36,059 bases of DNA from NCBI GenBank assembly GCA_964447495.1, contig CAYUTF010000025.1:1-36059 (forward strand), given 5' to 3'. Under the pieces are notes generated by a model. That model was not told the origin of the DNA. It worked only from the letters and a program-made list of their open reading frames with translations, and did no database searches. A program made the translations under genes and the position numbers. Positions 12,480 through 34,764 of the stretch are shown piece after piece; position 1 is the stretch's first letter, and every line of letters starts with the position of its first letter. Origin of the DNA: an uncultured archaeon (GTDB lineage: Archaea; Asgardarchaeota; Lokiarchaeia; Sigyniarchaeales; SOKP01).

Positions 12480-13247
12480 TTATATTTCTTCTCCAGATTC
12501 CTTTCCCATAAGCCTTAAAACGGAATCTGCAAGCTTATTTTGACTACGACTCATTATTCCCTTAATTTTCCCTTCTTTTCCGGTCACTCTGAGCATGATG
12601 CCATTCCATACTGAACTAGGCTCTCCTTTAACTTTCTTAAATCTATCCCGATGAACAGTAACTTCAATATTTTTATACTTTTTGGCAGCATCGGAACATT
12701 TAAAACATAAAATGCATTTATCTTTATCCACTACTATAGATTTTCCCTCTCGAGACATCGCATCGACCGAACACTCCTCTACAAATTGATCAATAACCTT
12801 GGTGTCCTTTTCATTACAGGTTATAGTTATCGATCCATCAACGACTTTTCGTACTTTACGTCCATCCTCAAGAGTTCGAACCTCCTCCTCAAATTCTGGA
12901 AGAGAACCATTTTCTACTAGTAAGATTTTATTCTCTCCATTGATTAATAATTCTAAGGTGTATCCTGGACATATCCATGAACAGCTACCACACCAAATGC
13001 ATTTATTGATATCAACGACAATCTTCTTGTCAGATTCTATTTTCATGAATTCTGGTGTGCCGATAGCGGTCTTTTTAAGGGGCTCTTCGTAGATAGATAT
13101 TGTTACAGGGCAAACCCTTTGACAAAATCCACACTCTAGGCAAAGGGACTCATCATATTTTAATATCGATTCATGATTGAGCATTTTATATACATAATGG
13201 GTGATATTCTCATCTACTTGAACTGCCTTTTTTACTGGTAATGACAA
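12480..13247 (-). CDS. Polyferredoxin / multi-4Fe-4S protein
   Basis: CLECGFCQRVCP, CIWCGSCSWICP, CILCFKC motifs; TTG start with GGAGTG SD-like motif; last gene of the hdrA-mvhD cluster. Confidence 0.85.
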   Translation of the reverse strand: MSLPVKKAVQVDENITHYVYKMLNHESILKYDESLCLECGFCQRVCPVTISIYEEPLKKTAIGTPEFMKIESDKKIVVDINKCIWCGSCSWICPGYTLELLINGENKILLVENGSLPEFEEEVRTLEDGRKVRKVVDGSITITCNEKDTKVIDQFVEECSVDAMSREGKSIVVDKDKCILCFKCSDAAKKYKNIEVTVHRDRFKKVKGEPSSVWNGIMLRVTGKEGKIKGIMSRSQNKLADSVLRLMGKESGEEI

Positions 13248-13302: not shown

Positions 13303-14433
13303 TTATGTTCTTCCAAGTTCCATTTGTTTTATGGCTTTACCAGACCTGAATGGTATATCGTCAACGTTCTCACCAGAGGTGTACTTAAATTTTTTCTTGA
13401 AGGTCTCATTGAGCGATTGAAAATATAATGATAAAGGTAAATGTTGAGGACAATTATTATCGCAATTTCCGCATTCTACGCAGCGATCTGCCACATGAGC
13501 TATTCTGGTTAGCTGATAGGTATTACTATCTATGTTTTTTTCTTTTTTCTTTTTCATAAGTATGCAATCAACGCAATAACAAACAGGGCAGCCCCGTATG
13601 CATATTCCGCATGCTGTACATGCTTGGAACTTAGCTAATTTTTCTTTTTGAGATAATTTATCCCATTCTTCCAAATCTTTCGCTCTCTTTGCTAAAGCAT
13701 GTTCCTTGATCTCTTTAGCTTTTTTCGTATGAATTTCCTTTAAATCAGCGGGAAGTATCTTTGTGGTAATTTTTGATTTTTCAACAAGTTCAGAGCCCTT
13801 ATCTGAGTAAACTTTAAGGATTATTTCTTCAGAATCAATTGGAATTCCGATATCGCTAATTCCTAAATCTGCCACAACGGGAACTTTTCGTGTGCATCGG
13901 GAACAATTTTCGGCTATCTCTAAATCAAGTTCTTTTGTCTTTCCATCATTGAATTTAAGAATTAACCCCTTATCGCCAATTTTTTCCTTAATAACCTTAG
14001 TAGTATCAATGTCCTTATATTTTTTCATTTCTCGGGACACATTTATTACCATACCGCGATCTTCGAAAGCAATGATAAACAAATTGTCTAAATTAACCTG
14101 CTTAATTTTTACTAATTCAATTATTCCTCGAGTGTCGCATGGTCTCGCAATTAAGCCAACCTTTTCTTTCATTGCTCCCTCAAGTGATTTATGGAGATAT
14201 TTTGCAGCGGAATCTGTTCTTGCATATCCATAAGCAATAAGATTTGTCAATGGAAAACCTGATATATCCTCCGGTTTTTCATACACTTTCGGACTTACAG
14301 TAAATCGATCTTCTTGACCTGATTTTTTATCTACTTTAGTTTCGGCGCCGATAATTTTGTCCACTTTCTTTTCTTTCAGTAGAGCCTTTAATAATTTTGG
14401 AAAATCTTCAATTTTAATTAAATATTCTGCCAT
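13303..14433 (-). CDS. FdhB/FrhB-family (FlxC-like) Fe-S subunit
   Basis: ARPCD.R.I.EL.K..Q, CSRC....P..ADL, CTACGICIRGCPVCYC, AH.ADRCVECGNCDNNCP. The start could be 14433, 14442 or 14451. Confidence 0.82.
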   Translation of the reverse strand: MAEYLIKIEDFPKLLKALLKEKKVDKIIGAETKVDKKSGQEDRFTVSPKVYEKPEDISGFPLTNLIAYGYARTDSAAKYLHKSLEGAMKEKVGLIARPCDTRGIIELVKIKQVNLDNLFIIAFEDRGMVINVSREMKKYKDIDTTKVIKEKIGDKGLILKFNDGKTKELDLEIAENCSRCTRKVPVVADLGISDIGIPIDSEEIILKVYSDKGSELVEKSKITTKILPADLKEIHTKKAKEIKEHALAKRAKDLEEWDKLSQKEKLAKFQACTACGICIRGCPVCYCVDCILMKKKKEKNIDSNTYQLTRIAHVADRCVECGNCDNNCPQHLPLSLYFQSLNETFKKKFKYTSGENVDDIPFRSGKAIKQMELGRT

Positions 14434-14546
14434 TGCATCCATGTATATCAAACTCTCTATTATTCTATTTTTTATGTTTAAATTCTTCTTTTACTTACTT
14501 CAATTACATTTTTTTTAATAAAATTTACATTTTGTATATTAATTCT

Positions 14547-14625
14547 TTAATGTGTTATATGGGGCTTCCATTTCTTCCGTTGAACTCTCATTTTTTTAGT
14601 TCAACATCATCAGTAAACACATTTA
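14547..14625 (-). promoter_or_regulatory. Eukaryote-like SECIS element in the 3' UTR of mvhD/vhuD
   Basis: Minus strand reads AAUGUGUU-UACUG-AUGA-UGUUGAACU-AAAAAAAUGAG-AGUUCAACG-GA-(AGAAAUGGAAGCCCCAUAU)-AACACAUU: AUGA/GA core, fully paired 9-bp upper stem, apical A-run, 8-bp lower stem, starting a few nt after the TAA. Confidence 0.9.
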
Positions 14626-14628
14626 ATT

Positions 14629-15069
14629 TTATGTTTTTATTTTTTGAGGTGTGTCGCCCTTACTTTTGAAAGGATTGGGGCCTAATGTTCGAATGACTTT
14701 ATCAAATTCAGTTGCTTCGCGTTGGAACTTTTGTCCCTCAGCTGCACTACAATAACTCAATCTTAATCGTTCTTCTTCGAGACCCATAGATTTTAACACT
14801 TCTTTTAGATATTCTACTTGACGGAAAGCGAAATAATTACCCGTTTCATAATCGCATTCTTTAGGATATCATCCCACTATCAAAACACCGTCAGCGCCTC
14901 TTCCAAAAGAGCGCATAACGACGTCTGCTCCAACTCGTCCCGTACATGGTACTAGAATAACTCGAATAGAATCGGGATATTGCGCACGAATTGTTCCCGC
15001 CATATCAGCAGACCCGTATCCTCACTTCCAACATAGAAATGCAATAATCTTAATATCTTCTTCTGCCAT
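14629..15069 (-). CDS. vhuD: Selenoprotein MvhD/VhuD (hydrogenase [2Fe-2S] delta subunit), 146 aa, Sec16 and Sec67
   Basis: Absent from the ORF track. Translation: MAEEDIKIIAFLCWK(U)GYGSADMAG...YP..IRVILVPCTGRV...GADGVLIVG(U)YPKECDYETGN...ERLRLSYCSAAEG...LGPNPF. TGA at 15022-15024 and 14869-14871 align to Cys in the paralog at 23293..23760. Confidence 0.95.
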
Positions 15070-15082
15070 AATGTTTCCCTCT

Positions 15083-17059
15083 TTAATCCTCCATAGGAAG
15101 TAATTCATCAATTAAAGCCATATATTGATCATCTCTAAAGTATGTTAATTCAATAGCTTTAGACGGGCAAAGACTAGCGCATGTACCACATCCTCTACAT
15201 AAAATGAGATTAACAACGATAATTCCCTTTTCATTGACTGAAATTGCTGTGAAAGGACAAGCTTCGATACATTTATAGCATTTAGCGCATCTTTCATCGG
15301 AAGGAGTGGCTCTAATTAATTCCATGGTATATTCGCCTTTACTCATTGGTATTGCTGCCGATGATGCTGCACCCTTCGCTTGACTCACAGATTTATCTAT
15401 CTCTTTTTGTCCTTGAGCAGAACCGCATATATAAATACCCGGAACTTTAGTACTTATAGGATCAAGTCTTGCATGATACTCCTTTAGAAAACCATCGGAA
15501 CTCTTTTCCATATTAAGGACTCGAGCGATCTCTTCTGTACCTTGTGATGGTAATGATGCAGAAGAGAGAATGACCATATGAGCTTCCATAGTAACAATAG
15601 AATCAGTTCCTACGGGTTCAAATTGTACTATAAGATTTTTTGTAAGTGGATCCTCTTCAATTTTCCCAACTAATCCTTTGACAAAGACAATTCCCGCGTC
15701 ACGAGCCCTTCTGTAATATTCTTCATAATCCTTACCTGCACATCTCATATCAATATATACACAAACGATTTCTGAATCTGGATACTCTGATTTTATCAGT
15801 TTCGAATTTTTAACCGATAGATTACAACATACGACTGAGCAGTATGGATGTTTTTTGACATCTCTACTTCCTACACAGTTAATAAATATTATCTTGGTAG
15901 GACGCTTCCCATCGGATGGTCGTTTCAAATGGCCGTATGTTGGACCGTTTGGAGCAATAATCCTTTCCAACTGTATTTGGTTGATGACATTCTCAAATTT
16001 TCCATATCCATAATCGGATCCTTCATAGAGATCCCAACCCGTCGCAACAATTATAGTACCAATATCGAGCTTTACAATTTCTTCTTGTTGTGAAAAATCA
16101 ATGGCATCTTCTACACAAGCATCGACACAGCCAAAACACTCAACACATGACTCTCTTACAATGTCGTATATTGCAGGAACTGCTTGAGCGAAGGAAATGT
16201 CAATACATTTACGAGCTGATAGATGTTCATCAAAATAATTTGATACATATATCGGGCAAACATCAGTACAAGCTCCACATCCAGTGCATTTACTTTCAAT
16301 GACGAATCGTGGATTTCTTTTTACTTGTACTTTAAAATTGCCAATATATCCATCTACTTTGACTACTTCACTGTACGTTAATATTTCAATATTTGGGTGA
16401 CGGTTAGCCTCTAACATTTTCGGACCGAGAATTCATATGGAACAATCATCGGTTGGGAACGTTCTATCGAGTTGACTCATTCGTCCACCGATCGTCGTAT
16501 TCTTTTCTATTAAATATACTTTGTATCCAGTATCACCTAAATCGGTTGCTGCTGACAAGCCTGAAATTCCACCGCCAATCACTAAAGCTGTTGGTGTGAC
16601 AGGAACCGTCATAGTTGGCACATCTTCTAATAATCGTGCTCGAGCGATTCCCGCTTTAATTAATTCAATAGCTTTTTTAATTGCTTTTTCCCGTACTTCT
16701 GGAGCTTGATGAACAAAACTACAATGCTCCCTGATGTTTACAAACTCAAAATATCTTGGTGGAATGCCTGCTTCCTTTAAAATCGCAGCAAATACAGGTT
16801 GATGTGTTCTTGGAGTGCATGCAGCTACAACAATTCGATCGAGTTTAAATTCTTCTATTTGTTCTTTAATATACGAACTTCCCCCTTCAGTACACATGGA
16901 AAGATATTCATATGCTCGAACTCCGTCTAATTTGTTGATTTCTTCGACTATCCTCGGAACATCTAAAATACCTGCTATATTTATCCCTCAGCGACACACA
17001 AAAACGCCTACAGTAGACGTTTCAGCTTCATAATTTTCCTTGGTCTGATTTCCAGACAC
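15083..17059 (-). CDS. hdrA: Selenoprotein heterodisulfide reductase subunit A, 658 aa, Sec24 and Sec209
   Basis: ORFs 16433..16897 and 15083..16417 are in one frame, joined by TGA 16433-16435 (FPTDDCSI-U-ILGPKM). The frame extends upstream through TGA 16988-16990 (VGVFVCR-U-GINIAG) to a GTG at 17059 preceded by AAGGTG. Confidence 0.94.
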
Positions 17060-17404
17060 ATTTAACACCTTTATTGATATATCCTCCTAATTTTTCAAGA
17101 ATATATGTTATAAATCTCTCTATTTAATAGTATCTAATAGAATATATTTATGATATTGTTAATAGTTCTTATTTTTTAAGTTCAATTATTATTAAATTTT
17201 ATTCAACGTATTTTAATATTTGAAGTTATAAGCTTTAATTACTCAATTAATCCGACAAAATATCACATGGTTATCGTTTCCAATAACTTATAAGAGAGGA
17301 AATTAATGGACTTGATAAAAAATGAATAAAAAAATGATGAGGTTGATCATATTTTTAGATATCATATAATAAATTACTTAATATTTTGGAGATAAATCTA
17401 GAAT

Positions 17405-18580
17405 ATGCAAGGTATTGAAAAGTCTATTATCAACAATGTTATACTAAGGAAATATCATCTTTCAAAAGATTCAAAAATAGATTATATTCTACAAATTACA
17501 GAAGACTTATGTGGTTTACACGCTACGGGGACCATAGAACCATATATTCAACTTTTTGTTAGGATGAATCATTTTATTAAGGAAGATTTAGATACCGAGC
17601 CATATATTCATAAAACCCTTGGTAGAATACGTGGTATGCGCAAAACATTATTTATTCTAGCAAAAGAATTAATGGAGATTGTCCATCCTATCGTTTGAGT
17701 TCTAACTCAGAAACGTGATGATAAATATTTAGAATACCGAGATATCTCTTTAAAGGAATATGAAATACTTGCGAAAAAAATAGCAAATCTGTTAGAGAAA
17801 AAAGAACTATCTACAAGTGAGATTAAAAAAGCAATAAATTCAAAGAAAGACATCGTAGCTGTAATCTCGATTATGTGCGACCAAATGATTTTACTTCGAG
17901 GTAGACTTTTGAGCAGTTGGAAAGATAGGAGGCTTTTATATGTTCCATTCAAAAGATATTTTCCAGACATAAAGTTGGATAGATATACTGAAGAACAAGC
18001 TATATCCTTACTCATTAAGAAGTATCTGAAATCTTATGGCCCCGTAACCAAAGAAGATATAATATGGTGGACTGGATTAACTAAAACCAGAATACAACCT
18101 GTTCTTACTGAATTAAAAGAAGATATCGAGCCAATCCAGATATCAGAATTGAATGAAGAATATCTCATAATAAAATCTGATTTCGCAATGTTAGAAAATG
18201 TTAGACATATTCCTGAAAGTACAATAAATTTACTCCCTTTACTTGATCCGTATATGATGGGATACAAAAGTCGTGAACGATATGTTGATTTGAAGTATTA
18301 TGATTACATATTTGATCGATCCGGAAATGCAACATACGTCATACTCCAAGATGGGGTCGTTATAGGAATTTGGGATATTATCGAAAAACCAGACCCTGTA
18401 TGTAAGTTATTTTTCTTCAATGACATTGATGATAATGTTCTACATGAAGTCTATTCAAAGGCAATTGCATTAGGTACATTCATAACAGGGAAAAAACTTC
18501 AAATTAAGAATTGTAAGTCAATGGTGCCTTTAACAAAAAGAACAATGGGTGGTTTCATGTCTCCTTTAAAGGAAGCTTAA
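17405..18580 (+). pseudogene. AlkZ/YcaQ-like (HTH_42) DNA glycosylase interrupted by one in-frame TGA
   Basis: ORFs 17405..17698 and 17873..18580 share a frame, with only TGA 17696-17698 between them. Motifs GLHAT...PYIQLF.R, MRKTLF, YLKSYGPVT..DI.WWTGL, LLPLLDPYMMGYK.R. Confidence 0.78.
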
Positions 18581-23292: not shown

Positions 23293-23760
23293 TCACAGGC
23301 ACCTTTCAAGTTCGATTAAACCTAATTTTTTAGGGATTTTTGATTCTCCTAACGCTTTCACGGTATTAGTAAATTCTGTTATTAATTCTGCAAACTGTTT
23401 CCCTTCACTTGCAGAAATCCAATGCAATCGAAATCTTTCTTCTTCTATTCCTATACTTTTAATTAAATTTTTTAAATGTTCCATTCTAACTTGAGTTAAT
23501 TCATTCCCAGAGATATAATGACAATCTCCTATATGACATCCGGTAACTAAAACTCCATCGATTCCATTCTTGAATGCACTTAGTATAAATGTAGGCTCAA
23601 CCCTTCCAGAGCACATAACTCTCACGATTCTTATATTTGGGGGATACTGAAACCTAGATACACCCGCTAAATCAGCTCCCGCATAAGAGCACCAATTACA
23701 ACAAAATGCTAAGATCTGAGGTTCAAAACTTTCTTCTTTTTTACTTTTTGATTTTGTCAT
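23293..23760 (-). CDS. mvhD: MvhD (cysteine form)
   Basis: AFCCNWCSYAGADLAG...RVMCSGRV...GCHIGDCHY..GN...WISASEG. Confidence 0.95.
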   Translation of the reverse strand: MTKSKSKKEESFEPQILAFCCNWCSYAGADLAGVSRFQYPPNIRIVRVMCSGRVEPTFILSAFKNGIDGVLVTGCHIGDCHYISGNELTQVRMEHLKNLIKSIGIEEERFRLHWISASEGKQFAELITEFTNTVKALGESKIPKKLGLIELERCL

Positions 23761-23778
23761 TTTTTAAAATCCTCTTAA

Positions 23779-26700
23779 TTACTCTTTTTGACATGCTTTA
23801 AGATTAATTCCAGTAAGTAAATCAATTTGCTTTTTAATTTGGAACTTGCTGAAATGTTTCTGATCTATTGCACCTAAAGGACATTCTGCTGCACAAGCAC
23901 CACATCCTTTACATACTGCGTCAATAATATGTGCTTTTTTCTCAGTAATGGTATATAAACCCATTTCTTTAGTAATATCAATCATTTCTATGGCTTTATA
24001 TGGACAAATTTCATAACATCTTCCACATCCTATACATTTTTCAGGATTTACTTGAGAAGTAATACCTTCAGTTTCTACTTCTCCTTTCACCATTAACATA
24101 GCAGCTCGTCCCGCTGCCCCATAACCTTGATCCATACTCTCATCAATCCATTTTGGCCAGTGAGCATTACCACACAGGAATATTCCTTCTGTAGCAAAGT
24201 CAATTGGCCGCAACTTAACGTGAGCTTCTAAGAAAAAGCCATCTTTTGTAGTAGGAACTTTGAGCTTCATGGCTAAATCTTTTGTACCCTCTGCAGGAAC
24301 TTCAGGGGTCGCTAATATCAATAAATCTGAGTCATATTCTATATCACATTCAGCTCCTATATTATGATATTTTACATGGAAAGAATCACCATTTGCAGTT
24401 AGCAGAATATCATCAATTGACTTATATCTTTCAAACATAACTTTATTTCTTAAATCTCGCCATAAACTTTCAGCATTTATGTCAGAAAACTGAAGTTCTC
24501 TATATAATACGTGAATTTGAGCATCTGGGTTTAATTTAAGTAACTTTTCGATATTCTTTAATGCAACTCTGCAACAAATATTACTACAATAAGATTTTAT
24601 TGTATCACCCTTATTACATTCATTTGCTCTCTGATCAACGCATAAAATTATAGTTGCTGCATTAAATTTAGGAATATCCTCTTCCCTTTTTTCATCAAAT
24701 TCTCTTTGAATATAAACGCGTTTTTCATATTTTTCTTGGATTTCCTTCCATCTTTCTGTCTTAATTTGATTTGAACCTGTTGCAACAATTATAGTCCCAA
24801 CCATGAATTCTTCTGTTGTTTCCTCATTAGATATGGTTTGCACTTTTATTTGATAATTCCCCACAAAACCTCGAATATCCTTTACTTTTGTGCTTGTAAG
24901 AATGTGAACATTATCCATACTTTCTAAATCCTTGATATAATTATCAATATCATCATTACTTAAGGATAAATCATATAGATCTACGTAATTGATGGCATTT
25001 CCTCCTAAAGTTTCTTTTAGATCAATTAAATATACTTCTAATCCTTGTTGGGCAAGATTACGGGATGCTATAATTCCTGCGATACCCCCTCCGATAACCA
25101 ATGTTGATTGCTGAACCTTAACCTTTATTTTTTGCAGTGGTTTTAAATTAACTACTTTGGCTAAATACATACGAATTAAATCCTTTGCTTTTTCAGTTGC
25201 TTTCTCAGGTTCATGTTGATGTACCCAAGAGCATTGATCTCTGATATTAACTAATTCGAATAAAAATTGATTTAATCCCGCTTCCCTCAAAGTATTTCTA
25301 AATAAAGGTTCATGGGTCCTAGGAGTACATGAAGCAACAATAAATCGATTTAATTTATATTTATGTATCATCTCTATTATTTGTTCCTGAGAATCTGAAC
25401 TGCAGGAATACATGTTTTCTTCTGCATGAGCGACATATGGTAATTTTGATACATACTCAACAACTTTTGCGGTATTAACTGTTCCTGCGATATTAATTCC
25501 ACACTGACAGACAAGCACTCCTACGCGAGGGTCTTCATCAGAATGGATGGGAACTTCAGGAGGATATTCAATCTCTTTAATATTTTCAAATCTGACAGGA
25601 TATAACTTTTCACTAATCTTTGCAGCACATGCTGAGCCCTCTGCAACAGAAGTTGGGATATCTTTAGGTGTTCTTGCATAGCCTGCAAAATAGATATTAT
25701 TCTTTTCACAAGTTGCGAATCCTTCGTTATCAATATATCCTAAATCATTAATTCCTACGTTCAAATTCTTTAATAATTCGTAATATGATTTGTTGGGAAA
25801 TAGAACACTTGCTAAAACAACTATATCAACCTCGTTAGCCTCAACAGTTCCTTTATCAATATCTTCATAACTTAAGATTAATTTTCCATTGTCGGGATTT
25901 ACTTTTACGAAAGACACTCTTCCATTAATATACTCTACACCATATTCTTCCTTGCTTTTTACAATGAATTCATAAAAGTTCTTTCCCTTTGCTCTTATCT
26001 CAGTATTATAAATCAAACATTCAGTATCGGGAGAGTGTTCTTTTGTAATGATTGCTTGTTTAGCTGAAGCCATACAACAAATAGCAGAACAATATTTTTT
26101 ACATCCAAGATGGTGAAAATCTCTGGATCCAACACACTGTAAGAAAGCTATCTTATGAGGATGTTTTTTATCATCTAACCTTATTACTTCACCCCCAGTA
26201 GGTCCATTTGCAGAAAGAAGACGCTCATATTGCATACTTGATAAAACATTTGGATTACTTCCACCAAGTACTTCATAAAATTCTGGTAATTCTTGTTTAA
26301 ACCCTGTAGCAATTACAATAGCTCCTACATCTATGTTTATACTTCTCGGTGTTTGGGAAAAATCAATTGCATTTGCGCTGCATTTTTTTTCACAGAATCC
26401 ACACGCTCCGAATTTTAAATGTAGACATGCATTGTCATCAATTAGATAAACTGGGGGTACTGCAGATGGGAAAGAAATATATGCTGCTTTTCTATTGTTC
26501 AAATTGCAATTAAACTCACTCGGTAATTTTTTAACTGGGCAAACAGAGGCACAATCTCCACATCCCTTGCATAAATCTTCTTTGATATATCTTGGTTTTT
26601 TAATTACTTCAATTTTATAATTACCCGGTGAACCCTCAATATTTTTCACATATGAATATGTTAGAAGCTCGATATTCGGATTTCTAAACACCTCTACCAT

Positions 26701-26895
26701 CTTTGGAGCAAGGATACATAAACTACAATCCAAGGTGGGAAATGTCTTATCGAGTTGTGACATTGCTCCACCAATAGTCGATTTCTCTTCAACAAGATAT
26801 ACTTTAAAACCTAATCCTGTCAAATCTAAGGAAGTTTGTATCCCTGCGATACCGCCTCCGATTACGAGAACGCTACTCTGCATTTTTTCCGACAT
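23779..26895 (-). CDS. hdrA: Large HdrA-like flavoprotein (cysteine form, two FAD-binding modules)
   Basis: Two IGGGIAG motifs, LDKTFPTLDCSLCILAPKM, internal GVLVCQCGINIAG...CTPRTHEPLF...NIRDQCSWVH domain, C-terminal 2x4Fe-4S. Confidence 0.92.
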   Translation of the reverse strand: MSEKMQSSVLVIGGGIAGIQTSLDLTGLGFKVYLVEEKSTIGGAMSQLDKTFPTLDCSLCILAPKMVEVFRNPNIELLTYSYVKNIEGSPGNYKIEVIKKPRYIKEDLCKGCGDCASVCPVKKLPSEFNCNLNNRKAAYISFPSAVPPVYLIDDNACLHLKFGACGFCEKKCSANAIDFSQTPRSINIDVGAIVIATGFKQELPEFYEVLGGSNPNVLSSMQYERLLSANGPTGGEVIRLDDKKHPHKIAFLQCVGSRDFHHLGCKKYCSAICCMASAKQAIITKEHSPDTECLIYNTEIRAKGKNFYEFIVKSKEEYGVEYINGRVSFVKVNPDNGKLILSYEDIDKGTVEANEVDIVVLASVLFPNKSYYELLKNLNVGINDLGYIDNEGFATCEKNNIYFAGYARTPKDIPTSVAEGSACAAKISEKLYPVRFENIKEIEYPPEVPIHSDEDPRVGVLVCQCGINIAGTVNTAKVVEYVSKLPYVAHAEENMYSCSSDSQEQIIEMIHKYKLNRFIVASCTPRTHEPLFRNTLREAGLNQFLFELVNIRDQCSWVHQHEPEKATEKAKDLIRMYLAKVVNLKPLQKIKVKVQQSTLVIGGGIAGIIASRNLAQQGLEVYLIDLKETLGGNAINYVDLYDLSLSNDDIDNYIKDLESMDNVHILTSTKVKDIRGFVGNYQIKVQTISNEETTEEFMVGTIIVATGSNQIKTERWKEIQEKYEKRVYIQREFDEKREEDIPKFNAATIILCVDQRANECNKGDTIKSYCSNICCRVALKNIEKLLKLNPDAQIHVLYRELQFSDINAESLWRDLRNKVMFERYKSIDDILLTANGDSFHVKYHNIGAECDIEYDSDLLILATPEVPAEGTKDLAMKLKVPTTKDGFFLEAHVKLRPIDFATEGIFLCGNAHWPKWIDESMDQGYGAAGRAAMLMVKGEVETEGITSQVNPEKCIGCGRCYEICPYKAIEMIDITKEMGLYTITEKKAHIIDAVCKGCGACAAECPLGAIDQKHFSKFQIKKQIDLLTGINLKACQKE

Positions 26896-33846: not shown

Positions 33847-34764
33847 ATGAAATTAAATAATGTAGAAATAGAGGATACATATTCGGAAGGATTCGGAACC
33901 TATTTCACCCGAATTTTGGTTACTGCAATTGATAAAAAACACCTCGATAATGTGGCTCAAGTAGCTACGGGGTTCGCAACTTCTGTAATTCATTGTCCAT
34001 GTGAAGCTGCTATTGATTGTTTTGTCCCTCCAGAGAAAACCCCTGATAAACGACCTGGGGTAATGCTTATGTTTTTTGTAGGGAAGAAGGATCAAGTAGA
34101 TAAAGTACTAATTGATCGTGTAGGACAATGTGTGTTAACTGCGGCAACTACTTCTTTGTTCGATGGATTCACACAATCCTTGGATCCAGCAAAAGTATTT
34201 TCAATTAATACAGGAGGCAAACTCCGTTATTTTGGAGATAAATTCGAAGAAAAAGTCAATGATTTCCCATTTCCTACCTGGAAAGTTCCTGTTTTTGATG
34301 GAAGTTTTTACATTCAAGACTCTTTTAAGGTTGGGAAAGGTGCAGGAGGCAATTTCATTCTTTTTGGAAAGGATCAAAAATCTGCGGTAGCAGCAGCTGA
34401 TAAAGCAGGAGAAGCAATCCTAAGTGTTGAGAATGTTATCGCTCCATTTCCAGGTGGGTTTGTAAGATCTGGATCAAAAGTGGGATCGAAGTATTCCTTT
34501 CTCCCCGCCTCTACAAATGAGGTCTTTTGTCCTACCTTAAAAGATAAAATAGATAACTCCATGTTAAAAAGTGATGAAAAAGCAGGATATGAGATTGTAT
34601 TAGATGGAGCAACTGAGGAAGCGGTTAAAGAAGCAATGAAAGCAGGGATTAAAGCAGCTGTTCAAGTCCCTGGAGTAACCCGGATTACGGCAGGAAATTA
34701 TGGGGGAAAATTGGGGCCATTCCAATATCACCTCCATGAAATTCTCCGAGGTGAAGCTCATTGA
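33847..34764 (+). CDS. ftr: Formylmethanofuran:tetrahydromethanopterin formyltransferase
   Basis: IEDTYSEGF, TGFATSVIHCPCEA, TPDKRPG, RVGQCVLT, PFPGG.VRSGSKVGS, ASTN, ITAGNYGGKLG. Confidence 0.96.
   Translation: MKLNNVEIEDTYSEGFGTYFTRILVTAIDKKHLDNVAQVATGFATSVIHCPCEAAIDCFVPPEKTPDKRPGVMLMFFVGKKDQVDKVLIDRVGQCVLTAATTSLFDGFTQSLDPAKVFSINTGGKLRYFGDKFEEKVNDFPFPTWKVPVFDGSFYIQDSFKVGKGAGGNFILFGKDQKSAVAAADKAGEAILSVENVIAPFPGGFVRSGSKVGSKYSFLPASTNEVFCPTLKDKIDNSMLKSDEKAGYEIVLDGATEEAVKEAMKAGIKAAVQVPGVTRITAGNYGGKLGPFQYHLHEILRGEAH

Follow-up and report, generated by a model that had tools for sequence, protein, structure and literature searches.

The closest described counterparts of the locus considered here are the tandem genes of HdrA (heterodisulfide reductase subunit A) and VhuD (a hydrogenase delta subunit) found as selenoprotein genes in Lokiarchaeota. 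As set out in the article text of Mariotti et al., all HdrA-VhuD tandems have only one selenocysteine insertion sequence (SECIS) element, the lokiSECIS, which lies downstream of VhuD, and the two genes probably share one polycistronic mRNA (PMC4989117, Mariotti et al. 2016). The same text states that one lokiSECIS may support up to six UGA codons over about 2 kb, that Lokiarchaeota HdrA is always terminated by UAA or UAG, and that the AUGA motif of the element can act as a stop codon, a VhuU.1 whose AUGA doubles as the stop being already noted there (PMC4989117). Regarding its structure, lokiSECIS is described in that text as an AUGA preceding a 9-bp stem, followed by an 11-nucleotide (nt) loop in which the first bases are A and the last G usually stands after an A, and then by GA or AA (PMC4989117). 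The shared-SECIS statement has been repeated, in the text of Huang et al., for more than 400 Asgard genomes (PMC11227280, Huang et al. 2024). Here, we report on an hdrA-vhuD pair located in a contig of 36,059 nt from an uncultured lokiarchaeial archaeon (GenBank assembly GCA_964447495.1, contig CAYUTF010000025.1), the whole of which is called the window below. The two genes contain two in-frame UGA codons each and are followed by a single SECIS element just downstream of vhuD. We consider, with a probability of roughly 0.8, that this pair is an ordinary member of the Lokiarchaeial and Asgard hdrA-vhuD selenoprotein pairs, in which one SECIS would serve both cistrons through a shared mRNA.

The shared-SECIS interpretation is thus already known and has been in print since 2016. 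A single distal signal recoding two cistrons joins prokaryotic operon organisation with eukaryote-style recoding, and this link is the reason why the Loki SECIS drew attention in 2016. What the window adds is a clean and well-controlled instance, with four selenocysteine (Sec)-type and four Cys-type pairs in the same genome and 60 orthologous loci, rather than the concept. The available text of a 2026 review mentions no experimental test of a shared SECIS, and a literature search combining Asgard, SECIS and polycistronic returned no paper. Judging from the accessible parts of two articles, reporter and mutagenesis work has so far addressed only methanogen SECIS (PMC9622424, PMC11881835). The anatomy of the element, a conserved downstream frhB-like gene with no conserved oligo-T in between, and a conserved hairpin over the hdrA start codon are targets for such work.

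Other known systems share only some features with this locus. Eukaryotic 3' untranslated region (UTR) SECIS elements, which are kink-turn AUGA/GA structures dependent on SBP2 and eEFSec and act in SelP on multiple UGAs, have in common with the window element the core, the A-rich loop and an action on more than one UGA from a distant position 3' of the coding sequence. They differ from it in that the upper stem of the window element (helix II) is shorter and its message bi- or polycistronic; SBP2 is described as not detected in Loki in the text of PMC4989117. The SECIS elements of Methanococcales and Methanopyrus, compared here from papers alone, carry a GAA_A bulge and lie in 3' UTRs; they serve the same families, HdrA and VhuD, in the same gene order, but have another consensus structure. 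The texts of PMC4989117 and PMC11227280 nevertheless report an AUGA motif in the methanogen VhuD SECIS, and the discussion of PMC4989117 implies for methanogens an hdrA SECIS of its own, described as 'degenerated' in Loki. Finally, the bacterial SECIS, a hairpin bound by SelB right after each UGA, likewise recodes UGA to Sec; in contrast, the window shows no such local element, and its four UGAs are followed by unconstrained synonymous positions.

Four in-frame UGA codons in hdrA and vhuD

The window is AT-rich (GC 0.27-0.36) and both genes lie on its minus strand, as do all the features described below unless another strand is given. Translated with TGA as U, hdrA (15083-17059, stop codon TAA) encodes the selenoprotein form of heterodisulfide reductase subunit A. 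Its start is probably the GTG at 17059; the longest open reading frame (ORF) begins at a GTG at 17068, and the alignment of 53 orthologous upstream regions points to GTG 17059. The product contains Fer4 and FAD/NAD-binding Pfam domains and matches the solved HdrA chain 9sfi_A over nearly its full length (residues 16-654, E 4e-206). Separated from the hdrA stop by 13 nt (15070-15082), vhuD, or mvhD (14629-15069, ATG start, TAA stop), encodes the selenoprotein form of the hydrogenase delta subunit, an FlpD protein (PF02662, E 1.4e-44) matching solved MvhD/VhuD chains (E about 1e-36). Both reading frames stay open only with TGA read through. Coordinates and sequence agree with the first-pass annotation of this DNA, made from the letters alone, which had described two UGAs in each of the two genes and 13 nt between them. 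Across 60 orthologous loci this spacing is 12-22 nt, a range that is approximate where N-termini differ.

The four UGAs occupy conserved positions. The first hdrA UGA (16988-16990), 2380 nt 5' of the SECIS core, is TGA in 56 of 56 aligned hdrA sequences and faces Cys in solved HdrA, while the second (16433-16435) stands at the canonical HdrA Sec position, is TGA in the same 56 of 56, and corresponds to an X of chain 9sfi_A within the same local motif. In two more hdrA columns, TGA (5 and 3 sequences) alternates with Cys codons. Both vhuD UGAs (15022-15024 and 14869-14871) are TGA in 61 of 61 sequences and face Cys in solved chains as well as in a Cys-type mvhD located elsewhere in the window. 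Moreover, coding conservation persists 3' of all four UGAs in the orthologue alignments. The hdrA gene therefore has the features of an HdrA selenoprotein, namely full-length similarity and a UGA at the canonical Sec/Cys position, and vhuD those of a VhuD/MvhD selenoprotein, namely an FlpD domain and two UGAs at conserved Cys positions. On the basis of these alignments, the four UGAs are predicted to be read as Sec.

A single SECIS element downstream of vhuD

The SECIS core (14576-14610), composed of AUGA (14607-14610) and GA (14576-14577), starts 18 nt 3' of the vhuD stop. Between the two motifs, a perfect helix II of 9 bp including one G-U pair (14598-14606 with 14578-14586) is capped by an A-rich apical loop of 11 nt (14587-14597), which opens with seven A and closes with AG. 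With respect to AUGA, 9-bp stem, 11-nt loop, GA and position, the element corresponds in every point to lokiSECIS as defined in section 11 of PMC4989117. The fold of positions 14540-14632 reaches -16.4 kcal/mol (z -3.4), only 1 of 200 shuffles being equally good. In 44 orthologues, 8 of the 9 helix II pairs have both partners changed, and pairing is found in 96.5% of cells, values that 0 of 500 shuffles reach, in a count for which 43 of the 44 sequences had been chosen by a pattern requiring a paired stem.

A pattern scan and three covariance models bear out the earlier proposal that a single SECIS lies just 3' of vhuD, about 2.4 kb from the first UGA, and they detect no second element. A strict pattern has 8 matches in the 3.8-Mb genome, none in each of five shuffled genomes, and exactly one in the window. 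A looser pattern without loop rules (293 matches in the genome, 4 in the window) was rejected as too permissive; its three other window matches have one mismatch each, no A-rich loop, and lie outside hdrA-vhuD. Rfam, used at its gathering thresholds, has no match in the window; its library, which we take to hold eukaryotic SECIS models, seems to be without a Loki SECIS model. Covariance model R1 (93 positions) was built on 44 orthologous elements with the window element in the training set and, with filters off, scores the latter at 101 bits, by construction; no other SECIS was found by it in the window, the next-best match having an E of 0.58 and no core. Model R2 describes a 41-position core from 10 orthologues. 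Because R1 and R2 miss the five other SECIS of the genome, a third model, R3, was trained on these five with the window element left out. Its top match in the window is 14573-14613 (19.4 bits, rough E 0.054, full length and ungapped), and on the minus strand of 15070-17400 it returns nothing at E up to 10.

The first-pass annotation had also reasoned that there is no room for an element specific to hdrA. The gap of 13 nt is indeed too small, but an element overlapping coding sequence is conceivable, so that this argument holds for the spacer alone; none was found in the coding sequence by the searches above. After each of the four UGAs, synonymous diversity is average (z -0.3 to +1.5 in 12-codon windows over 56 hdrA and 61 vhuD sequences), and such unconstrained synonymous sites argue against bacterial-type local hairpins or redefinition elements. 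MAFFT alignments that mixed orthologues and paralogues came out shifted and were not used.

Conservation and natural controls

A scan for orthologues with one genome per species gave 61 loci, i.e., 60 Asgard loci and one Methanobacteriaceae locus with Cys, the closest of them belonging to Promethearchaeota and other Asgard metagenome-assembled genomes. In all 60 Asgard loci, vhuD contains both UGAs, hdrA precedes vhuD in the same orientation (and contains 2-3 UGAs wherever the locus includes the N-terminus of hdrA), and a SECIS directly follows vhuD, identified in 43 loci by the pattern (+12 to +22 nt) and in 17 by R1 (51-102 bits). The strict pattern has no match elsewhere, on either strand, in these loci of about 6 kb. 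The hdrA stop codon is TAG in 31 of the loci, TAA in 29 and TGA in none, and vhuD ends in TGA in 6 of 60. That hdrA is never TGA-stopped and vhuD sometimes is fits with a SECIS which reads distant and not adjacent UGAs, as argued in the text of PMC4989117.

The genome itself provides natural controls. It holds eight full hdrA-vhuD pairs, of which the four UGA-type ones (2+2, 2+2, 2+2 and 3+2 UGAs) each carry a Loki-type SECIS, located at the stop codon of vhuD or immediately 3' of it, and the four Cys-type ones have neither UGA nor SECIS. The junctions of the Sec-type pairs measure 13, 13 and 20 nt, with an 11-nt overlap in the remaining one. With the published Lokiarchaeota HdrA-VhuD pairs, the locus and its relatives share the tandem order, a junction that is either very short or an overlap, several UGAs in each gene, the single element after vhuD, an hdrA that is never UGA-stopped, and the use of AUGA as a stop in sister loci. 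Nothing differs in principle; only a lower helix and a 3' mini-hairpin, described below, go beyond the core, stem and loop in the published text. In two loci of this genome, the AUGA core of the SECIS supplies the UGA stop codon of the gene, namely in vhuU (contig C76, locus L023 2318-2482) and in a vhuD paralogue (contig C5, locus L021 about 651-657).

The genome also encodes a Sec machinery. Above the respective cut-offs are a tRNA-Sec (57.7 bits), adjoining the gene for SepSecS (475 bits), an EFSec/SelB homologue on the same contig as the tRNA-Sec (245 bits), and a SelD that carries one in-frame TGA.

A probable shared signal and its alternatives

Taken together, the alignment of the UGAs, the Sec machinery, the occurrence of one SECIS per pair, the hdrA stop codons and the unconstrained synonymous sites support the initial proposal that one SECIS acts across a cistron boundary. 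Most likely, hdrA and vhuD would be transcribed together as one mRNA, and the SECIS 3' of vhuD would recruit the Sec-specific elongation factor with Sec-tRNA(Sec), either directly or through an adaptor. Ribosomes located anywhere upstream on the same RNA could then read all four UGAs as Sec, which would give the SECIS a reach of 261 to 2380 nt across the boundary between the two cistrons. Regarding transcription, two salt-marsh metatranscriptome runs (X1 and X2), holding 0.07 and 0.05 of the sampled words, provided one RNA-library contig of 267 nt, which covers 14874-15140 with 0 mismatches; its hdrA part measures 58 nt and its vhuD part, which contains the first vhuD UGA, 196 nt, with the spacer between them. 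This bridging contig is compatible with the co-transcription of hdrA and vhuD, which we infer.

Several points weigh against this interpretation. While the genes, their UGAs, the conserved element and the Sec machinery are observed, Sec insertion, the single transcript and an effect of the SECIS on hdrA are inferred; the bridging contig has a depth of 2 and stops short of the SECIS, the library may hold DNA, and contigs cannot prove a single transcript. As R1 and R2 are too sequence-specific and miss known paralogous SECIS of the genome, their silence elsewhere in the window is weak evidence, and only the pattern scan and R3, itself weak with 19.4 bits for a true element, speak against a diverged second element. 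To this have to be added the selected sequences of the helix II count, a PSTK-like gene (144.8 bits, E 4e-42) that falls below the curated family cut-off, and a hairpin at the start of hdrA that could have a recoding role.

This hairpin (17042-17058), with a conserved stem of 5 bp, spans the hdrA start codon and sits 22 codons before the first hdrA UGA. Its stem is invariant in 32 of 34 aligned orthologues, its loop varies in length by steps of 3 nt with indels confined to the loop, and synonymous diversity falls there to z -5 to -7. The motif occurs three times in the genome, twice at the start of a Sec-type hdrA (in the window and on contig C126). If hdrA were decoded through a second signal, for example in the leader or in the form of this hairpin, only vhuD would be served by the SECIS that follows it. 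We regard such an arrangement as improbable. It is favoured by the nucleotide-level conservation of the hairpin, with its 32 of 34 identical stems, by the drop in synonymous diversity, and by the presence of the motif at the other Sec-type hdrA start on C126. However, no SECIS model detects the hairpin, which lacks an AUGA/GA core; the genome has two more hdrA genes with UGAs (on contigs C51 and C5) in which the motif is missing; and the position of the hairpin upstream of the UGAs resembles that of an initiation-control element. Neither does the lack of constraint after the UGAs agree with a second signal, and with a distal SECIS acting on hdrA, one would expect what is seen, an hdrA that is never UGA-stopped next to a vhuD that sometimes is. 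Far more improbable still, to the point of hardly deserving consideration, is that hdrA and vhuD are broken genes here, with UGAs that act as stops or stem from assembly errors. In its favour, UGA serves as a normal stop elsewhere in the window, as the first-pass annotation had correctly pointed out (at 23293, in the Cys-type mvhD, and at 34764), and a nearby AlkZ-like gene carries a UGA resembling a true defect. But the same four UGAs recur in all orthologues (56/56 and 61/61) at Cys/Sec positions, and coding conservation runs on beyond them.

Assuming that the SECIS 3' of vhuD does serve the four upstream UGAs, it could still be intercistronic, inside a longer mRNA with hdrA, vhuD, the frhB-like gene and here also a ferredoxin gene, and not in a 3' UTR. 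This variant, which stands close to the earlier wording of an element in the middle of a cluster, appears to us a serious contender, at somewhat less than even odds. In line with it, vhuD has an frhB-like gene as its same-strand downstream neighbour in all 59 loci that could be assessed, the spacer between the two measuring 142-244 nt (median 189). T runs of at least 5 between SECIS and frhB-like gene are not enriched (16 of 60 spacers, against 14.4 expected from shuffles), and the corresponding spacer of the window (14443-14548), A-rich and C-poor, has a longest T run of 4. A T-rich stretch including a T6 run is found only after the last gene, that of the ferredoxin. Furthermore, a conserved motif immediately 5' of the frhB-like ATG suggests internal initiation on a leader. 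On the other hand, TATA-like A/T words located about 35-45 nt 5' of this ATG in many loci would make a promoter of its own possible, although in the part of the spacer that follows the SECIS, with 50% A and 3.7% C over 60 spacers, such words are weak evidence either way. To our knowledge, terminator rules are not established for this archaeal group. The two metatranscriptome runs, which hold small parts of the window, contain no contig on the SECIS, on the spacer 14443-14548 or on the downstream genes.

Anatomy of the element

In the unconstrained minimum free energy (MFE) fold, the whole SECIS (14549-14623) is a three-way junction. In addition to the arm formed by AUGA, helix II and GA, this fold contains a lower helix I of 8 bp (14616-14623 with 14549-14556) and, between GA and the 3' strand of helix I, a mini-hairpin with a 4-bp stem and a 5-nt loop (14559-14571). 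Without constraint, the MFE fold of each of the six SECIS of the genome shows the AUGA-helix II-GA arm and a 3' mini-hairpin, whose stem measures 4-6 bp and is unrelated in sequence to those of the others. The lower helix is clear in five of the six and not evident in the element of contig C1. While the mini-hairpin stem is invariant in the 44 orthologues of the window element, 3 of its 5 pairs are changed on both sides in the paralogue family of contig C126, one pair being U-A in 18 sequences and C-G in 7; in this family, 27 of 30 loci had matched the SECIS pattern, which placed no constraint on the mini-hairpin. The loop of the mini-hairpin frequently contains GCA in the elements of hdrA-vhuD pairs.

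Neither the mini-hairpin nor the lower helix is mentioned in the main texts of PMC4989117 and PMC11227280 or in the results of our literature searches; the supplementary figures of these articles may show them. We tentatively suggest, as a possibility less likely than its opposite, that the Loki-type SECIS is a larger RNA with a three-way junction, intercistronic in an hdrA-vhuD-frhB-like operon mRNA, in which the mini-hairpin could dock an archaeal SECIS-binding factor. If true, this would enlarge the description of lokiSECIS, which so far is that of a simple hairpin. The lower helix, the mini-hairpin, the downstream gene and the start hairpin are hence possible, modest additions to the published picture.

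Toward the 3' end of vhuD (14632-14670), the last 12-codon windows have low synonymous diversity (z -2.1 to -3.5). The RNA constraint of the SECIS may extend into the coding end of vhuD, or else this may be an alignment-end artefact.

Surrounding genes and further observations

According to ORF calls and Pfam, four minus-strand genes are arranged head to tail, i.e., hdrA, vhuD, an frhB-like iron-sulfur protein gene (13303-14442, Pfam FrhB_FdhB_C and Fer4), which is the conserved downstream neighbour, and a poly-ferredoxin gene of 255 aa (12480-13247, Pfam Fer4 families), with which the cluster ends. The four-gene cluster of the first-pass annotation is therefore correct for the window, while the conserved block comprises three genes, the ferredoxin gene coming next in only 12 of 59 assessable loci. 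That all four genes end in TAA, as it had also stressed, is true but uninformative, since 20 of the 25 ORFs of at least 140 aa in the window do so.

Upstream of the start hairpin, two Shine-Dalgarno-like motifs are found at 17083-17087 and 17066-17069, and a conserved promoter-like block extends from about 17150 to 17195.

The nearby AlkZ-like DNA glycosylase gene (17405-18580, plus strand) is interrupted by one in-frame TGA at 17696-17698. We rejected the idea that this TGA is a fifth Sec codon, since an orthologue has Lys at its place and the gene is not followed by a SECIS; it is probably a broken gene or reflects an assembly error.

A second pair of the window (23293-26895), consisting of a Cys-type hdrA-like gene and mvhD, has neither in-frame UGA nor SECIS and constitutes an internal control. 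Its hdrA-like protein, of 1038 aa, has HdrA segments that are rearranged or duplicated, and its Cys-type mvhD (23293-23760) ends in TGA.

Finally, outside the window, an ORF of 158 aa on contig C1 (137780-138253, minus strand; locus L022 981-1454) contains two adjacent in-frame UGAs within a G-C-U-U motif and is followed, about 15 nt downstream, by a Loki-type SECIS. It belongs to no Pfam family, and its assignment to a published Prx-like family was rejected, as the description does not match, a CxxC/UxxU box is absent and there is an extra Cys. It may represent an Asgard selenoprotein family that has so far gone undescribed, provided that published supplements do not list it. Within the taxonomic family, 53 of 61 genomes contain the ORF; almost all of its full-length matches have 2-3 in-frame TGAs, the few matches without any being partial, and conservation at the protein level continues past the UGAs.

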